DNA of 64,000 bases from Thermogemmatispora carboxidivorans (GTDB taxonomy: Bacteria; Chloroflexota; Ktedonobacteria; Ktedonobacterales; Ktedonobacteraceae): assembly GCF_000702505.1 (NCBI RefSeq), contig NZ_JNIM01000001.1:4686327-4750326 (forward strand). The letters run 5' to 3'. The position numbers and the translations under genes were made by a program. Every line of letters starts with the position of its first letter. Within the stretch, counting starts at the first letter, position 1. This document shows, piece by piece, positions 1 to 9,292 of this stretch. The notes beneath the pieces were generated by a model. That model saw only the letters and a program-made list of their open reading frames with translations, made no database searches and was not told the origin of the DNA.

Positions 1-1984
1 CACTGGTCAAGGAGCGCAGATCATTGACGTAGCCGAACATCTCGGCCAGCGGGACATGGGCTCGCACCACATAGACGGAGCCACGGCTCTCCATGCCGAG
101 GATTACGCCACGGCGACGGTTGAGATCCCCGATGATATCGCCATAGAACTCCTCGGAAGTGGTTACCTCGACCAGCATCACCGGTTCCAGCAAGATGGGG
201 CCGGCCTTGCGCGTCGCCTCTTTAATGGCCAGAGACCCGGCGGTCTTAAAGGCCATCTCACTCGAATCGACCTCATGATAGGAGCCGTCGAAGAGCGTGA
301 CCTTGACATCGATCATGGGGTAGCCGGCGATAATGCCATTCTCCAGCGTCTCCCGGATACCGATCTCGACCGGCTTGATATACTCCTTGGGGATGACGCC
401 ACCGACAATGGCGTTGACAAACTCGAAGCCCTTGCCGGCATTGGGTTCGACGCGAATCCAGACATCGCCGTACTGGCCGCGCCCACCGGTCTGGCGGACA
501 TAGCGACCCTGGGCGGTCGCTTCGCGTGTGATGGTTTCGCGATAGGCCACCTGGGGGCGTCCGATATTGGCCTCAACCTTAAACTCGCGGAAGAGGCGGT
601 CGACGATCACCTCCAGATGCAGCTCACCCATGCCGCGGATAATCGTCTGACCACTTTCGGGATCGGTGCGCACCTGGAAGGTGGGATCTTCCTCAGCGAG
701 CTTACTGAGGGCGATCGTCATCTTATCCTGATCCCCGCGCGTCTTCGGCTCGATGGCAATCTCGATCACCGGCTCCGGGAAGGAGATCGATTCCAGGATC
801 ACCGGGTGCTGCGGATCGCAGAGGGTGTCGCCGGTGAAGGTATTGCGCAGCCCGACGGCAGCACAAATATCGCCGGCGCGGATCTCGTCGATATCTTCGC
901 GATGGTTGGCATGCATGCGCAGCAAGCGACCGATGCGCTCTGCCTTGCCCTTGGCCGTATTTTCGACCGATGAGCCTTTGGTCAGCGTACCGGAATAGAC
1001 GCGCAGATAGGCCAGGCGGCCCACGAAGGGATCGGAGACGATCTTGAAAGCCAGGGCGCTGAACGGGGCATCGTCGGCAACCGTTAGCGTGACCTGTTCA
1101 CCAGTATCGGGATTAACGCCGACGGGAGGAGGAATATCGAGAGGGGAAGGAAGGTAGGCAACCACCGCATCCAGCAAAGCTTGAACACCCTTATTGCGCA
1201 GGGAGGAACCACAAAGTACCGGCACCAGAGTGCCGGCAATTGTTGCTTTGCGGAGGGCAGCCCGGATCTCGTCCTTGGTAATCTCCTCGCCCTCAAGATA
1301 TTTCAGGGTCAACTCCTCGTCGGTCTCGGCGACACGCTCAATGAGCGCATCCCGATGACGCTTTGCCTCTTCTTCCAGACCGGCAGGAATGGGAGTCGGC
1401 TCGGGCCGCGTGCCCAACTCGTCGAGGAAAATGACAGCATGCTGCTCGATAAGATCGATGAAGCCCTTGAAGTCGCTCTCCGCCCCGATCGGCAGTTGGA
1501 TCGGAAGAGGGTTGGCCCCCAGACGGTCACGGATCATCTGAACGGTGCGCCAGAAATCAGCTCCGACGCGATCCATCTTGTTGACAAAGCAGATGCGCGG
1601 GACATTGTACTTGTTGGCCTGGCGCCAGACGGTCTCAGACTGAGGCTCGACGCCGGCGACAGCGTCGAAGATCACAATGCCCCCATCGAGGACGCGCAGC
1701 GAGCGCTCGACCTCGGCAGTAAAGTCGACGTGACCAGGCGTATCGATGATGTTGATGCGATGGTCGAGCCAGAAGCAGGTAGTAGCCGCAGCGGTGATAG
1801 TGATCCCGCGCTCCTGCTCCTGTACCATCCAGTCCATCGTCGCAGCCCCTTCGTGCACCTCACCCATGCGGTGAATCTTCTTTGTGTAGAAGAGGATGCG
1901 CTCGGTCGTTGTCGTTTTTCCCGCGTCAATATGGGCGATGATACCGATATTCCGCGTTCTTTCGAGTGAGTATTCTCTAGACAT
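1..1984 (-). CDS. fusA: Elongation factor G (partial; gene runs off the window start, C-terminus missing)
   Basis: Minus-strand reading from ATG (cat at 1982-1984) gives [34 protein letters not shown]...DTPGHVDF...NKMD..., the EF-G GTPase motifs. It is absent from the ORF track only because it is truncated by the window edge. The listed + ORF 56..973 is its antisense artefact. Confidence 0.93.
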
Positions 1985-1993
1985 GATTAAGTA

Positions 1994-2527
1994 TTACCAG
2001 CGATAATGGATGAAAGCCTTGTTGGACTCTGCCATCCTGTGGGTTTCCTCCCGTTTCTTGATGGTCGCACCCTGTCCAGAGGCAGCGTCCATGATCTCGT
2101 TGGCCAGCTTCTCCACCATGCTCTTGCCGGTGCGAGCGCGAGCAGAGCGGATGAGCCAGCGCATGGCGAGGGAGAGGCCGCGCTCTTTGCGAACATCGAC
2201 GGGCACCTGATAGGTCGAGCCTCCGACACGGCGGGGCTTGACCTCGACCGTCGGCGTGGCGTTTCTGATGGCCTGCTCGAAGACCTCCAGGGCTGGACGC
2301 TTCTGTCGCTGCTCGATTACGGCGAAAGCCTGATAGAGGATGCGCTCGGCCAGGCTCTTCTTGCCATCGACCATCAGCTTCCCGATGAAGCTCGCGACGT
2401 TGCGGTTCTGATACTTGGGGTCCACAACTTCGAGCCGGCGCACTCCACGCCGATACTCGTACTTCTTGGTTTCCTTGCTATGCTTGTCCGACTCTGACCG
2501 ACGGCTAACACGTTTGCGTCTTGGCAA
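1994..2527 (-). CDS. rpsG: 30S ribosomal protein S7
   Basis: ORF 1994..2641 contains ...[33 protein letters not shown]...[21 protein letters not shown]...[13 protein letters not shown], the S7 hallmark C-terminus. The likely TTG start (revcomp of caa 2525-2527) is preceded by AGGGAGG. The N-terminus carries a ~20-aa lineage-specific insertion after PRRK. Confidence 0.9.
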
Positions 2528-4000
2528 GGTCTCTTTTCCTCCCTTTCGCTTCGCGGTCAACACACATGCTCGCCGCCGCTCCTGCTGCCGGCCTGGGCCG
2601 ACAAGCGTGGCCGCAGTCCGCTTACGCGCGCAGACGAGCATCTACGCTACGCTACGTACGTACGTATGATACCTGCCTTGTGCAAAGCACCAGAAAAGGC
2701 GTCGCTTCGATTGTAGCTGACACCTGGGTCTACAACAAACAATACTGGTTGTCCTACCTGGCCGCGCTCCCTCTCGCCAGACCTGCTGGTCGCAGCGGAC
2801 AGAAGGGTCAACGCGAGCTTCTGGGAGGCTGCCGAGGCCGCCATCCCGGAGGTAGGGCACCCACCTATCGCGTTAGAGGAATGCGCTTCTGCTTCTGCTG
2901 CTCGTCGATGAGAACGGAAGCTACAATCGGATACGAACGCCTACAGCATCAGCAACGACGGTCGCCGCACCAGATCGCTGGCCACCTCACGCGCTCACGG
3001 CATCGCCTCATCCCGACCTCAATCAACTGAGCGCGGCGCAGGTCCTTTTCCACCTGTTCAGGTAGGGCCGCAGATCTGCTGCCACGAACGTCGCTTGTTT
3101 TCCTCGCTGGCCGCTCTGCTCTTCCGTTGCTCTCCTCCCTGGTACCAGCCAGACGAGTGGTCCGCTTAGACCTCTCTACCGCTCTCTTGTTCGCTCGCTC
3201 TCGTCAGCCAGCGCTCTTGCAGGGTACGGTAAGCGTTTTCATCCTCGCTCGCCACCGCGGCTGGCCAGACGTCAGCGCAAGGCGAGCTAGCTAGCCCGGT
3301 GCTGCAGAGAGAGCGCCTCTCGCTTTTCCCTTCCAGCTCCAGCGGCTCCACTTGCCAGGGCAGAGGCAGGCAAGCAACGCAACGGACTGGAGCCACCGGT
3401 GCGCTCTGCCTCTCCATGCGCTTGCGCGTCTTCGTGCAGGTATTGTACTGTTCGACTCGACGCTCTGGCCCAGCCCCATCCGCCGACCCGCCCGGGGTTA
3501 GGCGCTAGCAGTTTTCTTTTCCAACCTTCACTTCACCACAGGCTGCAGCGAGGATTGCCTTGCATGTTTGCCTTGTTGGCTGGCTTGAGAGATGAAACCA
3601 GGCCAGGAGTGGTAGCCAGCCAGTCAAGCCAGTCAGTGATCAGTCACACGACGGCGACCACGGCATCGCCGTCTTCGCGCTGGCCCGCTTCTCCTGCGGC
3701 GACGCGAGTGCGTGGCGCAGGCGAGCGAGCAGACAAACAAACGAGCGTCTCTTTCCACGTGACACGCCAGAGCGAGCGCACATTTTTTTGTTGCCTGCCT
3801 GGCAGAGGGACAGACGTGGAGGACACTCGACACGCATCGACCGTGAAGAACGCCGATGTGTGTGATCGAAAGTGATGCACGACCTGTAAACCGACCTACC
3901 TGAACGCTCTCAGGCGGTATCGGGCAGGGAAGCGGGGAATGTGGCGGGTCGGATGGCTATGCTTCTGGCATGCTTCTGCGCTTCAGCAGCCGCCCACGCG

Positions 4001-4459
4001 CTACTTCTTACCACCCCTGGCGGCTGAAGTGGCCGCCGCCTGCCCAGGCTTGGGCCGTTTGGCTCCATACTTTGAGCGACCGCGGCGACGCTTAGCAACT
4101 CCATCGCTATCGAGCGTACCGCGGATGATATGGTAGCGCACACTGGGCAGATCCTTAACGCGCCCACCGCGGATCAAGACCACCGAGTGCTCCTGGAGGT
4201 TATGGCCCTCGCCGGGGATATAGGCCGTGACCTCCATCAAGTTACTCAAGCGCACGCGCGCGATCTTGCGCATGGCTGAGTTGGGCTTCTTGGGCGTCAT
4301 GGTACGGATCTGCGTACACACGCCGCGCTTCTGCGGCGCGCCCTGCATGCGCATGACACGGTTCTTCAGCGCGTTGTAGGAATACAACAGCGCTGGAGCC
4401 TTCGAGCGTCTGACCTTCTTGGAACGGCCCTTTCGGACCAGCTGATTGATCGTTGGCAA
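4001..4459 (-). CDS. rpsL: 30S ribosomal protein S12 (with ~15-aa C-terminal extension)
   Basis: [12 protein letters not shown]...[18 protein letters not shown]...[31 protein letters not shown] matches S12 throughout. The extra [15 protein letters not shown] tail is atypical. Confidence 0.95.
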
Positions 4460-4541
4460 CGAGCAATCCTCCCCTAACTGTCCTCTAAAGGGGCGCGCTG
4501 ATGCGCGCCCCTTCTCAATCTATGCGCGGTTGTATATGGTA

Positions 4542-7500
4542 TCACTCATCACTCAGGCTGTCAAGAGCCATGCCGGGGGTACCGCTGCTGTGGCCGTTGC
4601 TGCCAGAGCTTCCACCCAGGCCAGCCCCCACGCCGGCCACGCTGGGCGCGCCCGTCAGGCGTTGCTGGACCTGTTGCTGGCGCGCTAGCTGTTCGCGGCG
4701 TCGCTGCAAGAAGCCGGAGCCAGCCGGAATGAGCTTGCCGATGATGACGTTCTCCTTGAGACCCACCAGGTGATCGGTCTGGCCCTGAATGGCCGCCTCG
4801 GTCAGGACGCGCGTGGTCTCCTGGAACGAGGCTGCTGCCAGGAAGCTGTCGGTGTTGAGCGAGGCCTTGGTGACGCCCAGGAGGACGGTCTGGGCGCGGG
4901 CCGGCTCGCCGCCCTCGGCCAGGACGCGCGCGTTGGTCTCAGCAAAGGCGAAGCGGTCGATCAGGTCGTTGGGCAGCATGTCGGTATCGCCTGGTTCCTC
5001 GACGCGCACGCGGCGCAACATCTGCCGGATGATGATCTCGATGTGCTTATCGTTGATGCGCACACCGGTGTTGCGGTAGATGCGCTGGACCTCTTTGACA
5101 AGGTACATCTGGACCGCTTCGCGCCCGAGGATGCGCAGGACATCCTGCGGGTCGAGATGGCCGCTGGTGATGGGCGTCCCGGCTTTGATGTACTGCCCCT
5201 GAGCGACGGCCAGGCTGCGGGCCGCTGGTACCGGATAGCTGCGCTCGTCGCGCTCCTCGGAGCGGATGGTCAGCACCCCGTTCGCGTTGAAGAGGACTTC
5301 GCCGCTGGTACGGGCACGCACTTCGCGCGGCTCGCTGCCGTTCTGCGGCGGCTCCAGGGCCAGCAGCTGATCCTTCTGGACCCGCTCGTGCTCGCTGACG
5401 AGGATCTCGGCCCCCGGCGGCAGGCGGTACTCGTCGAAGATGGTGTTGGTCGAGACGACGCGCACGGTGCGGCTGCCCGTGTTTTCGTCTTTGATGATCT
5501 CGACGACGCCATCGATCTCACTGATCTCCGCCTTATCTTTGGGGACGCGCGCCTCGAACAGCTCTTCGATGCGCGGTAGACCCTGGGTGATGTCGCCCTG
5601 GGCACCAGCGATACCGCCAGTGTGGAAGGTACGCATGGTCAGCTGCGTGCCCGGCTCGCCGATGGACTGGGCGGCGATGATGCCAACGGCCTGGCCCAGG
5701 CGCACCAGGCTGTTCTCCGCCAGGTCGCGGCCATAGCACTTGCGGCAGACGCCGCGGCGGGTCTGGCAGCCTAGCACGGAGCGGACGCGCACCTGCTTGA
5801 CGCCCGCCGCCACCAGGGCATCGGCAATGTCCTCGGTGATTTCGTCGCCGACCTCGATGAGGTGCTCGAAGCCAGGGATGGGCTCCAGCAGGATGCGCCC
5901 GGTGATGCGCTGGCGGATGTCGGGCAGCATCATCTCCTTGCTGTCCTCATCGGTGATGAGGATGCCTTCGGTGGTCTGACAATCCTCTTCGGTGACGATG
6001 ACGTCCTGGGCCACGTCGATCAGGCGCCGCGTCAGATAGCCCGACTCGGCGGTACGCAGTGCGGTGTCGGCCAGTCCTTTGCGCGCTCCGTGGCTGCTGA
6101 TAAAGTACTCGAGCACGCTCAGCCCTTCGCGGAAGTTGCCCCGAATGGGCACGTCGATGATCTTACCGGATGGGCTGGCCATCAGACCACGCATACCGGA
6201 GAGCTGACGGATCTGCTGGAAGCGGGCCTTGGTGGCGCCAGACTTGGCGATGGTGAAGATGGCACCGTAGGGGTCTAGCGTCTGCTCGACCATCTTGGTG
6301 ATGTTCTCGGTGACTTCGTTCCAGATGTCGATGGTCTGCTGGTATTTCTCGAAGTCGGTGATGAGACCCTCACGGTACTGCTCATCCAAAGCGGCGATCT
6401 TGGCGTCGGCTTTGGCCAGCTCCTCGGCTTTGCCTTCCGGTACCTTGATGTCACTGACGGCAATGGTAGCGCCAGCCTTGGTGGCGTAGGAGAAGCCGAG
6501 ACGCTTGATCTCGTCCGCCAGCTCGCAGGTCTTGACGCGCCCATACTCCTTGTAGCACTCGGAGATCAGCGCGCGCAGGTCATCCTTCCTCATCGGGTAG
6601 TTCTTGAAGCGCATGCGCTCGGGCAGCGATTCGTTGAAGATGATGCGCCCGACGGTGGTGGTAATGAGCTGGCGCTGCGCATACATGGTCGGCCCCGCCG
6701 GCGGCGGCTCATCGAAGATTTGCACACCATCCATGCGCACTTTGATGAGAGCCTGCAGGTCGATGACGCCGTGATGGTAGGCCAGCAGGGCCTCGGTCGG
6801 GTCGGTGAAGACGCGCCCCTCGCCCTTCTTGCCCGGACGATCCTGCGTCAGGTAGAAGCAGCCAAGAACCATGTCACCGGTGGCCCCAATGGATGGCTCG
6901 CCAGTGGCTGGCAGCAGCAGGTTGCGCGTGGACATCATGTACTGCCGCGCTTCGTCCTGGGCTTTCTCGGACAGCGGGACGTGGACGGCCATCTGGTCAC
7001 CATCGAAGTCGGCGTTGAAGGCCGAGCAGACCAGCGGATGCAATTGGATGGCGCTGCCTTCGACGAGCACGGCCTCGAAGGCTTGCAAGCCCAAACGGTG
7101 CAGGGTCGGCGCACGGTTGAGCAGGACGGGATGGTCCTTGATGACTTCCTCTAGAACATCCCAGACTTCGGGCCGGACACGCTCGACGAAACGCTTGGCG
7201 CTCTTGATGTTGTGCGCATCTCCACGCTCGACGAGCTTGCGCATGACGAAGGGCTTGAATAGCTCGAGCGCCATGCGCTTGGGCAGGCCACACTGGTGCA
7301 GCTTCAGCTCAGGGCCGACAACGATCACCGAGCGGCCAGAGTAGTCGACGCGCTTACCGAGCAGGTTCTGACGGAAACGGCCCTGCTTCCCCTTGAGCAT
7401 GTCAGAGAGGCTCTTGAGCTTGTGGTTACCCGAGCCAGCGACCGCTCGACCGCGGCGCCCGTTGTCGATGAGGGCATCGCAGGCCTCCTGCAGCATGCGC

Positions 7501-8888
7501 TTTTCGTTGCGAATGATGATCTCCGGCGCGCTCAGCTCCAGCAGCCTCTTGAGACGATTGTTGCGGTTGATGACGCGGCGATAGAGGTCGTTGAGGTCCG
7601 AGGTGGCGAAGCGCCCGCCGTCAAGCTGGACCATTGGACGCAGCTCGGGCGGCAGCACTGGCAGCACCGTCAGGATCATCCACTCGGGACGGTTGCCCGA
7701 CTTGCGGAAGGCTTCTACGACCTTGAGGCGCTTGGTGGCCTTCTTGCGCCGCTGGCCAATGGTCGAGCTGATTTCCTGACGCAGCTCCATCGCCAGTTTG
7801 TCGAGATCAATATCGGCGATTAGTTCGCGCACAGCCTCGGCACCCATGCCGGCGCGGAAGACGCTGCCGAAGGCCTCCTTCAGCTCGCGATAGCGATTCT
7901 CCTGGAGCAGGTCCATCTTTTTGAGGTTGACCAGGTCGCGGCGCAGCTGCTCCAGGCGATGGCGGCGGTCGGTGCGCTGCGATTCGAGCTGCGACTGCAA
8001 GAGGTCGATCTGGCCCTGGTAGTCAAGGTTGAGGCGCTCGGCCTCGCGCTCGCTCTCGGCGCGTACGGCCTCCAGGGCATGGCGGGCCTGCTCAGCAATA
8101 TCGTTGCGGCAGGTCTCGGCTACTTGCTCCAGCAGCTCGATATGCTTGAGGGTGACGACCTCGCCACGCGAGACGATGATCTGACCGGTCGGCTCGTAGA
8201 CGATATCGTCTTCCGCCGGCTTGCCACGCTGGGTGCGCAGCTCAGCCAGGGTCTCGCTCTCGGCCTGGCGAGCCCGTTCTAGATCACGCTCGCGCTCCTC
8301 TTGAATCTGGCGGATGCGGGCCGCCAGGCGGGCGCGCTCGTCCTGAATCTCGCTGTCGCGCTGCTCTTTGAGACTGTCGACGCGCTCGACAACCTCTTCC
8401 TCGGTCGTCTGCTGAAGATTGGCTAGCTCGCGATCCAGCTCCATCAGGGCCTTCTGGCGCGCTTCTTCGTCGATGTGGGTGACCACGTAGAGCGCAAAGT
8501 AGAGGATGCGCTCCAGGTTGCGCGGCGACAGATCGAGCAAGAGGCCAATGCGGCTGGGAATGCCCTTAAAGTACCAGATATGGCTGACCGGCGAAGCCAG
8601 CTCGATATGGCCCATGCGCTCGCGGCGCACCTTTGAGCGCGCGACCTCGACGCCACATTTATCGCAGACGATGCCCTTGAAACGGACGCGCTTGTATTTG
8701 CCACAATAGCACTCCCAGTCCTTGGTGGGGCCGAAGATACGCTCACAGAAGAGACCGTCCTTCTCTGGCCTGAGAGTGCGGTAATTGATGGTCTCCGGTT
8801 TCGTGACCTCGCCGTAGCTCCAGCTGCGAATCTGCTCGGGACTGGCGAGACTGATACGAATTGCGTTGAAATCGTTGACTTCGAGCAT
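4542..8888 (-). CDS. rpoC: DNA-directed RNA polymerase subunit beta-prime
   Basis: 1448 aa with N-terminal Zn-finger [23 protein letters not shown], the catalytic [12 protein letters not shown] motif, bridge helix and trigger-loop regions. A ~190-aa coiled-coil insertion follows the Zn finger, and the C-terminus has a Gly/Ser-rich tail. Confidence 0.97.
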
Positions 8889-9292
8889 GCTGCCTCCTGA
8901 TGGGAAAGGGGAAGGCCCCGGCCATCTCCTCGACGCGCTCTTGTTGTCTCTTCTCCTACCACTATTTTGCCGGCCTTGCCTTAGTGCGGGCTGCTCCGTC
9001 CGTCTTCTGCCGCTCTGGTTACTCCGCTCATCTCACTCACTTCACCCCGGTAGTTGACTCAGCCAGCTCTCTGGCCTGGAATGGAACCTGCCTTGTCTGA
9101 CCTGGACGTGGGCGCTGATGACAGGCAGGCACCAGCCAACTGGCAAGCAGCACTGAATATGCTGGTTCAGGCTTGCCGGCCAGAGAGCGAGCCGACAACG
9201 GCACAGCCCAAGACGGCAGGGGAACCGGAGGGAGTACTGCGACCGCTCGCCGTGCCGGTTGATTGATGGCACGGGCACCTTCTCCGGTTCCC

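Follow-up and report, generated by a model that had tools for sequence, protein, structure and literature searches.

The spacer between the genes for ribosomal proteins S12 (rpsL) and S7 (rpsG) of Thermogemmatispora carboxidivorans contains a structured RNA that is present between these two genes in every sampled str operon of the Ktedonobacteria, and only there. The analysis concerns a 64,000-nt stretch of contig NZ_JNIM01000001.1 (positions 4,686,327 to 4,750,326, assembly GCF_000702505.1), here referred to as the window, to which all coordinates refer; positions within the spacer are also given on the mRNA strand as p, which equals 4001 minus the window coordinate. We consider it probable (roughly 0.6) that the spacer is an untranslated intercistronic section of the rpsL-rpsG-fusA mRNA carrying a cis-acting, S7-responsive leader that is specific to the Ktedonobacteria and enlarged in Thermogemmatispora. 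An earlier note on this DNA, made from the letters alone, had suggested a very long structured intercistronic RNA or an unannotated noncoding RNA at this place. This is close to the result, as the RNA is conserved, covaries and lies on the mRNA-sense strand, with no terminator-like site on that strand.

The boundaries of the spacer follow from the two flanking genes. The full S7 open reading frame (ORF) extends over 1994-2641 on the minus strand, with the true rpsG start at the TTG at 2527. This codon is preceded by a Shine-Dalgarno sequence, GGGAGGA (2537-2543), and the N-terminus PRRKRV aligns to relatives whose rpsG begins at this codon, too; two S7 clusters named as Thermogemmatispora match the protein with 97% and 92% identity. 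With rpsL ending at 4001, the spacer therefore occupies 2528-4000, and the 1,473-nt gap described in the earlier note is real and exactly as given there, as judged from the ORFs, the start codon and the relatives. It is the largest noncoding gap in the window, the next largest measuring about 400-430 nt, and its G+C content (about 0.61) matches that of its flanks.

Orthologous spacers measure 1,570 nt in L081 (GCA_019683635.1), 1,589 nt in L082 (from a Joint Genome Institute (JGI) metagenome), 1,602 nt in L165 (T. tikiterensis, MCIF01000002.1) and 1,760 nt in L085, so that five Thermogemmatispora lineages keep a spacer of 1473-1760 nt. In more distant Ktedonobacteria the length is 276-473 nt, and 227-543 nt in a wider metagenome sample. 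As a baseline we used a scan of a genome collection with S12, which had no close relatives among the matches listed and also served as a negative control; among those matches, the S12-S7 spacer of 77 str loci of other bacteria has a median of 127 nt and a maximum of 396 nt. The window spacer is thus 3.7 times as long as the largest of these and 2.7 times as long as the largest in other Ktedonobacteria (543 nt). The view that S12 and S7 genes normally lie tens of base pairs apart holds in part, given this median and maximum and a published survey (PMC3616713) that found an extended S12-S7 distance in nearly one-third of bacterial genomes. Long S12-S7 spacers are common, yet one of about 1.5 kb is an extreme outlier and a trait of the genus. 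The earlier note had allowed that relatives might have a short spacer and that the extra DNA might be unique, repetitive junk. Spacers outside the genus are indeed much shorter, but the extra DNA is kept at the same site in all five Thermogemmatispora lineages and contains conserved islands.

In a 4-way alignment, 630 of the 1,473 nt fall into islands with identities of 0.81-0.93. In rpsG and rpsL, the window shares 4-fold degenerate sites with L081/L082 at an identity of 0.83-0.86 and with L085 at 0.68-0.80, and about 630 nt of the spacer are conserved above the synonymous-site level. The islands mostly coincide with the RNA core described below and its flanks, with about 105 nt (p372-402, p444-462, p500-538 and p886-901) located in an insertion within it.

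The spacer is noncoding, as the earlier note had surmised. Its ORFs are as described there, none longer than 169 aa, and a Pfam search with the 10 longest yielded no family and only noise below threshold. No reading frame is conserved across the lineages, where indels are not multiples of three; the sole open frame that recurs in all lineages does not stay intact, since the window and its relatives differ in it by a 2-nt indel and the short-spacer relatives carry further disrupting indels. Substitutions lack 3-periodicity in every 150-nt segment of the spacer, whereas in rpsG and rpsL, the positive control, nearly all differences fall at third codon positions. The covariance search against Rfam proposed in the earlier note was run with Rfam 15, at gathering and at permissive thresholds (E up to 5-10), and no family matches the spacer: nothing relevant was found in the window spacer, two short-spacer relatives or three orthologues, the sole matches being STnc320, a chance hairpin match between rpoC and rpsL, and a weak microRNA match. 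A scan for tRNA and transfer-messenger RNA genes likewise found nothing in the spacer.

Comparisons among relatives show a different kind of conservation. The 410-nt spacer of L086 shares five blocks with the window spacer, arranged in the same order, two of which are mutually reverse complementary. When metagenome contigs were scanned for the exact pattern of block 1, 69 loci emerged, and the match lies between rpsL and rpsG wherever both genes are visible. The consensus structure, derived from a MAFFT-only alignment of 30 sequences (A1), reads from 5' to 3' as a hairpin H1 (ACCRCCUGA...UCAGGUAGGU), a 4-bp junction helix PJ, a hairpin H2 with a variable loop, a helix H3 with the invariant GUGUYCUCC, and a helix H4 whose outer part (AGGCGUC/GRCGCCU) is invariant and whose inner part varies, followed by a UUUUCUGGUG tract and then the Shine-Dalgarno sequence. 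The structured core measures about 230 nt. Covariance models match 73 of 73 Ktedonobacteria-type loci with 93-288 bits; in the 64-kb window they match the spacer only, on the minus strand at 2663-3926, as two separate halves. In contrast, they have no match in 783 kb from 80 str loci among the listed S12-scan matches, a control set comprising Anaerolineae, Dehalococcoidia, Chloroflexia, Firmicutes and others, including one cyanobacterial locus (L057).

The structure is supported by covariation. In an alignment of 57 distinct sequences to the covariance model (A3), 95.3% of cells form pairs, a fraction that is inflated because the sequences were aligned to the model, compared with 32-42% when the partners are slid. 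Compensatory changes occur in 22 of 50 pairs, and the 161 compensatory cells compare with 44 +/- 5 in shuffles, none of 500 shuffles reaching 161. The A1 alignment gives 95.8% pairing and 11 compensatory pairs. All 9 pairs of H1 form in 57/57 sequences, with a sequence invariant across the family, while compensatory pairs are found in H2 (5/7), PJ (3/4), H3 (3 pairs, with 98.8% of cells pairing) and inner H4 (11/11). Independent folds of H4 place many different complementary inner stems on one invariant base. Exchanges of G-U with G-C or A-U are frequent, which assigns the structure to the mRNA-sense strand.

The genus differs from the rest of the family at one junction. The distance from the 3' strand of H3 to H4 is 7-8 nt in 54/54 other distinct members compared with 802-990 nt in the five Thermogemmatispora sequences, whose inserts measure 799-987 nt. 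The H4 interior between the outer strands is also longer, 216-322 nt compared with 34-144 nt elsewhere; in the rest of the family the H3 loop spans 8-173 nt and the stretch from H4 to the start codon 26-257 nt, and for all three lengths Thermogemmatispora lies at or beyond the upper end of the family range. In the closest outgroups, L086-L088, H4 is already enlarged (132-144 nt) and the junction is normal.

Autoregulation of the str operon by S7 is a textbook case that is known mechanistically only from E. coli. There, S7 binds the S12-S7 intercistronic RNA and represses the synthesis of S7 and EF-G (PMC10931766, PMC3616713), and both papers review the translational operator of Saito & Nomura 1994. 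The E. coli-type S7-interacting RNA is confined to Gammaproteobacteria (PMC3616713), and in other phyla long S12-S7 spacers that lack the E. coli structure are frequent and unexplained (PMC3616713, PMC10931766). The Ktedonobacteria element resembles the E. coli RNA in its place (between rpsL and rpsG, on the mRNA strand, immediately 5' of the S7 start) and in its several helices with variable peripheral ones. It differs in size (core of about 230 nt compared with about 100 nt) and in distribution, having been found only in Ktedonobacteria-type loci. Homology between the two is not detectable, judged by the lack of any match in Rfam 15, which may hold no model of the E. coli element. S7 binding is known for the E. 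coli RNA, whereas for the Ktedonobacteria it is proposed by analogy. In the Ktedonobacteria, direct termination-reinitiation coupling is unlikely across spacers of 227-1760 nt.

The core is an untranslated region directly 5' of a ribosomal protein gene, on the same strand, with a covariation-supported structure. It shares these properties with the leaders of L10, L20, S15 and S4, which are likewise lineage-restricted and contain invariant elements that suggest a protein site. We therefore regard the core as a new candidate member of the ribosomal-leader class, and the kb-scale, junction-split form as a new variant rather than something categorically new. The 20 candidate leaders of Eckert & Weinberg 2020 (PMC7247131) include no S7 or rpsG leader, and we found no paper on an RNA motif at the rpsL-rpsG locus of Ktedonobacteria or Thermogemmatispora. 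Unlike the leaders just named, the Thermogemmatispora element has one of its internal junctions split by an insertion on the kb scale. To our knowledge, it is also far longer than any described ribosomal protein leader. An extended rpsL-rpsG spacer has also been proposed as an S7 operator in a cyanobacterium, on the basis of its similarity to 16S rRNA (Meng et al. 1989, in PMC3616713). In contrast to that spacer, no 16S similarity is detectable here against the E. coli 16S sequence used as a stand-in, and the cyanobacterial locus in our control set has no model match. Lineage-specific, fast-evolving, length-variable insertions at defined points of a conserved RNA are also found in rRNA as expansion segments and intervening sequences. 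The corresponding points here are the H2 loop, the H3 loop, the H4 apex and the H3/H4 junction, with the differences that the host is an mRNA leader rather than rRNA and that the largest insertion sits at a junction, not at a helix tip. A resemblance of GCUACAAUCG to 16S nucleotides 1233-1241 was considered and dropped, since this helix covaries freely in the family and the 16S alignment is no better than shuffles.

The element is confined to the sense strand just 5' of the S7 start and has both invariant and covarying helices, all of which points to a protein-binding leader. Invariant helices combined with freely covarying ones are the usual signature of such leaders. The spacer is presumably co-transcribed with its flanking genes, because it contains no terminator-like and no sigma-70-like promoter site on the sense strand. 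By analogy with E. coli, S7 is most likely the ligand, and the mode of repression would be similar: surplus S7 may bind the folded RNA and thereby reduce translation of rpsG and, via coupling, of fusA. Within the element, H1 and outer H4 are invariant in sequence, two or three further helices covary (H2, H3 and inner H4), and a short junction helix is present; S7 probably contacts the surfaces of H1 and outer H4, the invariant ones. Binding may alter access to the Shine-Dalgarno sequence, for which the invariant CCUCC in H3 and the U-rich tract beside the Shine-Dalgarno are candidate sequestering elements. In Thermogemmatispora the element is enlarged roughly five-fold, with a mostly unconstrained insertion of 0.8-1.0 kb together with a longer H4 apex and a longer stretch between H4 and the Shine-Dalgarno sequence. 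Both halves of the core are under purifying selection, and the element therefore presumably still works; the halves would meet either with the insertion between them or once it has been removed by processing. For an entire Chloroflexota class, the locus provides a concrete, covariation-supported candidate S7 operator, with a compact version of about 230 nt that suits binding and structure work. Thermogemmatispora offers a natural experiment, in which an element split by about 0.8 kb at an otherwise invariant junction, with both halves still selected, lets one test whether a bacterial mRNA operator works across, or after removal of, a kb-scale insertion.

Several observations weigh against the leader interpretation. 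The A3 alignment was fitted to the model structure. Local alignment of the core with E. coli 16S rRNA scores no better than shuffles, which leaves mimicry of the S7 site in rRNA unsupported, at least with this stand-in. The folding z-scores of three parts of the spacer are ordinary (-0.55, -1.53 and -1.90), with the antisense strand scoring slightly better than the sense strand. A global RNAalifold run on five full-length spacers fails to recover H4, which the family covariation establishes, and the long-range helices from that run are therefore not trusted. A helix that closes the insertion and rejoins H3 with H4 could not be demonstrated, the pairing of p298-311 with p1027-1040 ranking well in 2/5 lineages. 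Finally, an insertion in an otherwise invariant junction could mean that the element has lost or changed its function in Thermogemmatispora.

The alternative that survives best, and which we consider possible though not probable, is that the additional DNA, about 1.1 kb, is selectively neutral and merely tolerated as the remains of an old insertion (a defunct mobile element or a pseudogene, for instance) in the leader of the ancestral Thermogemmatispora, so that only the core matters and perhaps no longer acts as one unit. Most of the insertion evolves fast: outside the islands it has 75-78% identity and many indels relative to the L081/L082/L165 group, and it essentially cannot be aligned to L085. 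The variable insert length and an unremarkable folding energy agree with this scenario, and the invariance of the site in all other members makes the insertion look accidental rather than a gradual expansion. However, 0.8-1.0 kb has been kept in five lineages without deletion despite frequent indels, and its four islands are conserved above the synonymous-site level. The insertion also shows no protein similarity, no coding remnant and no intron or other RNA-family match, and the spacer has no second copy within the 64-kb window. Convincing terminal inverted repeats, such as those of miniature inverted-repeat transposable elements, were not seen at p260 and p1058.

The opposite notion, that the insertion is a functional RNA domain which this thermophilic genus has added to an S7 leader for which we found no earlier description, is in our view unlikely. 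The domain might act as a processed intervening sequence or as a long-range switch in which p508-525 pairs with the pre-H1 block, and the pyrimidine tract with the Shine-Dalgarno sequence 1.4 kb away, and it may have co-evolved with a 21-residue insertion in the RNA-binding tail of S7 described below. If true, it would be the largest known bacterial ribosomal protein operator and an mRNA counterpart of rRNA expansion segments. Three candidate long-range pairings are sequence-conserved in all five lineages and consequently show no covariation: p45-58 with the island at p508-525 (inverted repeat I16), p298-311 with p1027-1040 near the insertion ends (inverted repeat I6), and the pre-H1 pyrimidine tract, p62-72, with GAAGCG...GGGAG at the Shine-Dalgarno sequence. 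The island p500-538 is 92-95% identical in L085 although its flanks do not align, and it is the best duplex partner of the pre-H1 block in 4/5 lineages, against a high background. The energies of the pre-H1/island duplex and of the closing helix are not clearly above the GC-rich background, and about one perfect complement of 10-11 nt is expected by chance in 1.5 kb of GC-rich sequence. The three pairings are leads only. A further inverted repeat, I9 (p96-106 with p935-945), is not conserved in L081, L082 and L085 and was treated as chance.

Removal or cutting of the insertion in the RNA, either as an intervening sequence excised by RNase III-type cleavage at a closing helix or as an unrecognized intron, appears quite improbable. 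The halves could then rejoin or act in trans, or the cut could mark the site that separates an rpoBC-rpsL mRNA from an rpsG-fusA-tuf mRNA. The exact placement of the insertion in the otherwise invariant 7-8-nt junction and the conservation of both flanking domains fit such a scheme, as does the pairing of p298-311 with p1027-1040 (a 9-bp perfect helix; 14 nt at 86% complementarity). That closing helix is not clearly above background in 3/5 lineages, though, and the roughly 105 nt of insertion islands are too little for a recognizable ribozyme core. The intron suggested in the earlier note did not materialize in recognizable form, as neither the window region nor three orthologues (L082, L085 and L165) matched a group I, group II or any other Rfam family at E up to 5.

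Still less likely is an independent transcription unit or control at the DNA level, that is, an internal promoter or operator for rpsG-fusA-tuf or a small RNA, for instance in p1305-1380 with its palindromic ACGUACGUACGU tract. The island p1276-1380 is identical in the window, L081 and L082 though the flanking genes differ at about 14% of 4-fold sites, and the block occurs in this genus only, the 410-nt L086 spacer lacking it. This has to be set against the missing sense-strand sigma-70-like promoter and Rfam match, a palindrome that is broken in L085, and a surrounding core that covaries at the RNA level on the sense strand. An unannotated protein gene or small ORF, which open frames of 60-194 codons on both strands and a 66-aa gene called in T. 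tikiterensis (L165) might suggest and which the earlier note had also considered, is highly unlikely in view of the frame-breaking indels, the missing periodicity and Pfam matches, and translations rich in Arg, Ser, Ala and Cys as expected of out-of-frame GC-rich DNA. The 66-aa hypothetical protein (L165 2344-2544) lies in the fast-evolving part of the insertion, has no Pfam match and no conserved frame, and is probably spurious.

Both low-complexity tracts pointed out in the earlier note were found, as tandem repeats at 2642-2666 and 3618-3635. L081 and L082 have exactly the window's version of the tract CAUACGUACGUACGUAGCGUAGCGUAGAUG (2639-2668). Within it lies a perfect palindrome of 14 nt, UACGUACGUACGUA, that is disrupted in L085 by two substitutions.

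The S7 protein of Thermogemmatispora has a feature of its own, a 21-residue insertion in the N-terminal tail (rpsG codons 8-28, 2444-2506, minus strand), and indels between lineages preserve the reading frame. The S7 of other Ktedonobacteria has 156 aa and lacks this insertion, which thus occurs in the same genus as the giant leader. RefSeq records give a 149-aa S7 that starts 3' of the insertion, while GenBank entries of T. aurantia and T. argillosa give 177 aa. The RefSeq S7 in Thermogemmatispora thus lacks 28 residues, and in one record a hypothetical gene is annotated within the spacer; we take both to be probable annotation errors.

Table 1. Features of the rpsL-rpsG region in window coordinates, with the basis of each assignment
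Feature	Position	Strand	Basis
rpoC	4542-8888	minus	ORF list
rpsL (S12, 152 aa, TTG start), upstream gene	4001-4459	minus	ORF and translation; Pfam Ribosom_S12_S23 on identical protein in L081
rpsG (S7, 177 aa, TTG start), downstream gene, presumed regulatory target	1994-2527	minus	ORF call and relatives
rpsL-rpsG spacer, 1,473 nt	2528-4000	minus	ORF boundaries, orthologous spacers
Pre-H1 segment (stop codon to H1, p1-79), conserved in genus	3922-4000	minus	Island p1-266, 4-way identity 0.89
Pre-H1 block CCAUCCGACCCGCC	3943-3956	minus	Motif position
Pre-H1 pyrimidine tract UUCCCCGCUUCCCU	3926-3939	minus	Motif position
H1: GAUACCGCCUGA, loop, UCAGGUAGGUCGG	3891-3921	minus	Family-invariant hairpin
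PJ 5' strand AUCACACA and hairpin H2 (CAUCG...CGAUG)	3832-3866	minus	Alignment to model R2
H3: 5' GUCGAGUGUCCUCCACGU, 3' ACGUGGAAAGAGACGCUCG, 53-nt loop insert	3742-3831	minus	Minimum free energy (MFE) fold, model alignment
Invariant CCUCC in H3, complementary to a Shine-Dalgarno sequence	3818-3822	minus	Family alignment
Thermogemmatispora-specific insertion, 799 nt (p260-1058), at H3/H4 junction	2943-3741	minus	Junction lengths in family
Insertion island p372-402; overlaps repeat tract AGCCAGTCA and local hairpin	3599-3629	minus	4-way identity 0.87, inverted repeat I11, tandem repeat
Insertion island p500-538; GGGCGGGUCGGCGGAUGG complementary to pre-H1 block CCAUCCGACCCGCC	3463-3501	minus	4-way identity 0.88, inverted repeat I16
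H4 overall	2697-2942	minus	MFE fold, model alignment
H4 outer helix, AGGCGUU with GACGCCU	2936-2942 with 2697-2703	minus	Family-invariant helix
H4 inner helix, CGAUUGUAGCU with AGCUACAAUCG	2919-2929 with 2708-2718	minus	Inverted repeat I8, 11/11 nt
H4 apex, enlarged, about 200 nt	2719-2918	minus	Model alignment
Family-wide UUUUCUGGUG tract, then genus-specific block p1305-1380	2621-2696	minus	Island p1276-1380, 4-way identity 0.93
(ACGU)n/(AGCGU)n tract CAUACGUACGUACGUAGCGUAGCGUAGAUG within genus-specific block	2639-2668	minus	Motif position
Variable stretch	2581-2620	minus	Anatomy map
Conserved pre-start block including Shine-Dalgarno GGGAGGA (2537-2543)	2528-2580	minus	4-way identity 0.88; Shine-Dalgarno kept in all relatives

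Other intercistronic regions of the cluster are also larger in Thermogemmatispora. The rpoB-rpoC spacer measures about 400 nt (8889-9292 in the window; 3174-3571 in L081) compared with 165 nt in L086, and the fusA-tuf spacer about 575-580 nt in L081 and L082 compared with about 230-290 nt in L086, L089 and L092, which amounts to a roughly two-fold enlargement. In the gap between rpoC and rpsL (4488-4513 and 4536-4564, minus strand) there is a perfect 11-bp GC-rich hairpin, AAGGGGCGCGC-AUCA-GCGCGCCCCUU, as well as a sigma-70-like site of good quality (TTGACA, 17 nt, TACCAT, with an upstream TG) that overlaps the end of rpoC. The two could represent a terminator or stabilizer of rpoC and a promoter of the str genes, respectively. 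It is this hairpin that matched STnc320 weakly and by chance in the Rfam search.

The C-terminus of S12 (4001-4060, minus strand) is a basic, Ala-rich extension; the protein has 152 aa here compared with 147-151 aa in relatives of the family, and alignments to the S12 of most other sampled bacteria end near query residue 137. At its other end the window starts within fusA (1-1984, minus strand), and the plus-strand ORFs at 56-973 and 1181-1969 are antisense shadows rather than genes. In L086, a metagenome-assembled genome, fusA is called as two ORFs of 589 and 89 aa (6481-8559), probably as a result of a frameshift or an assembly error.

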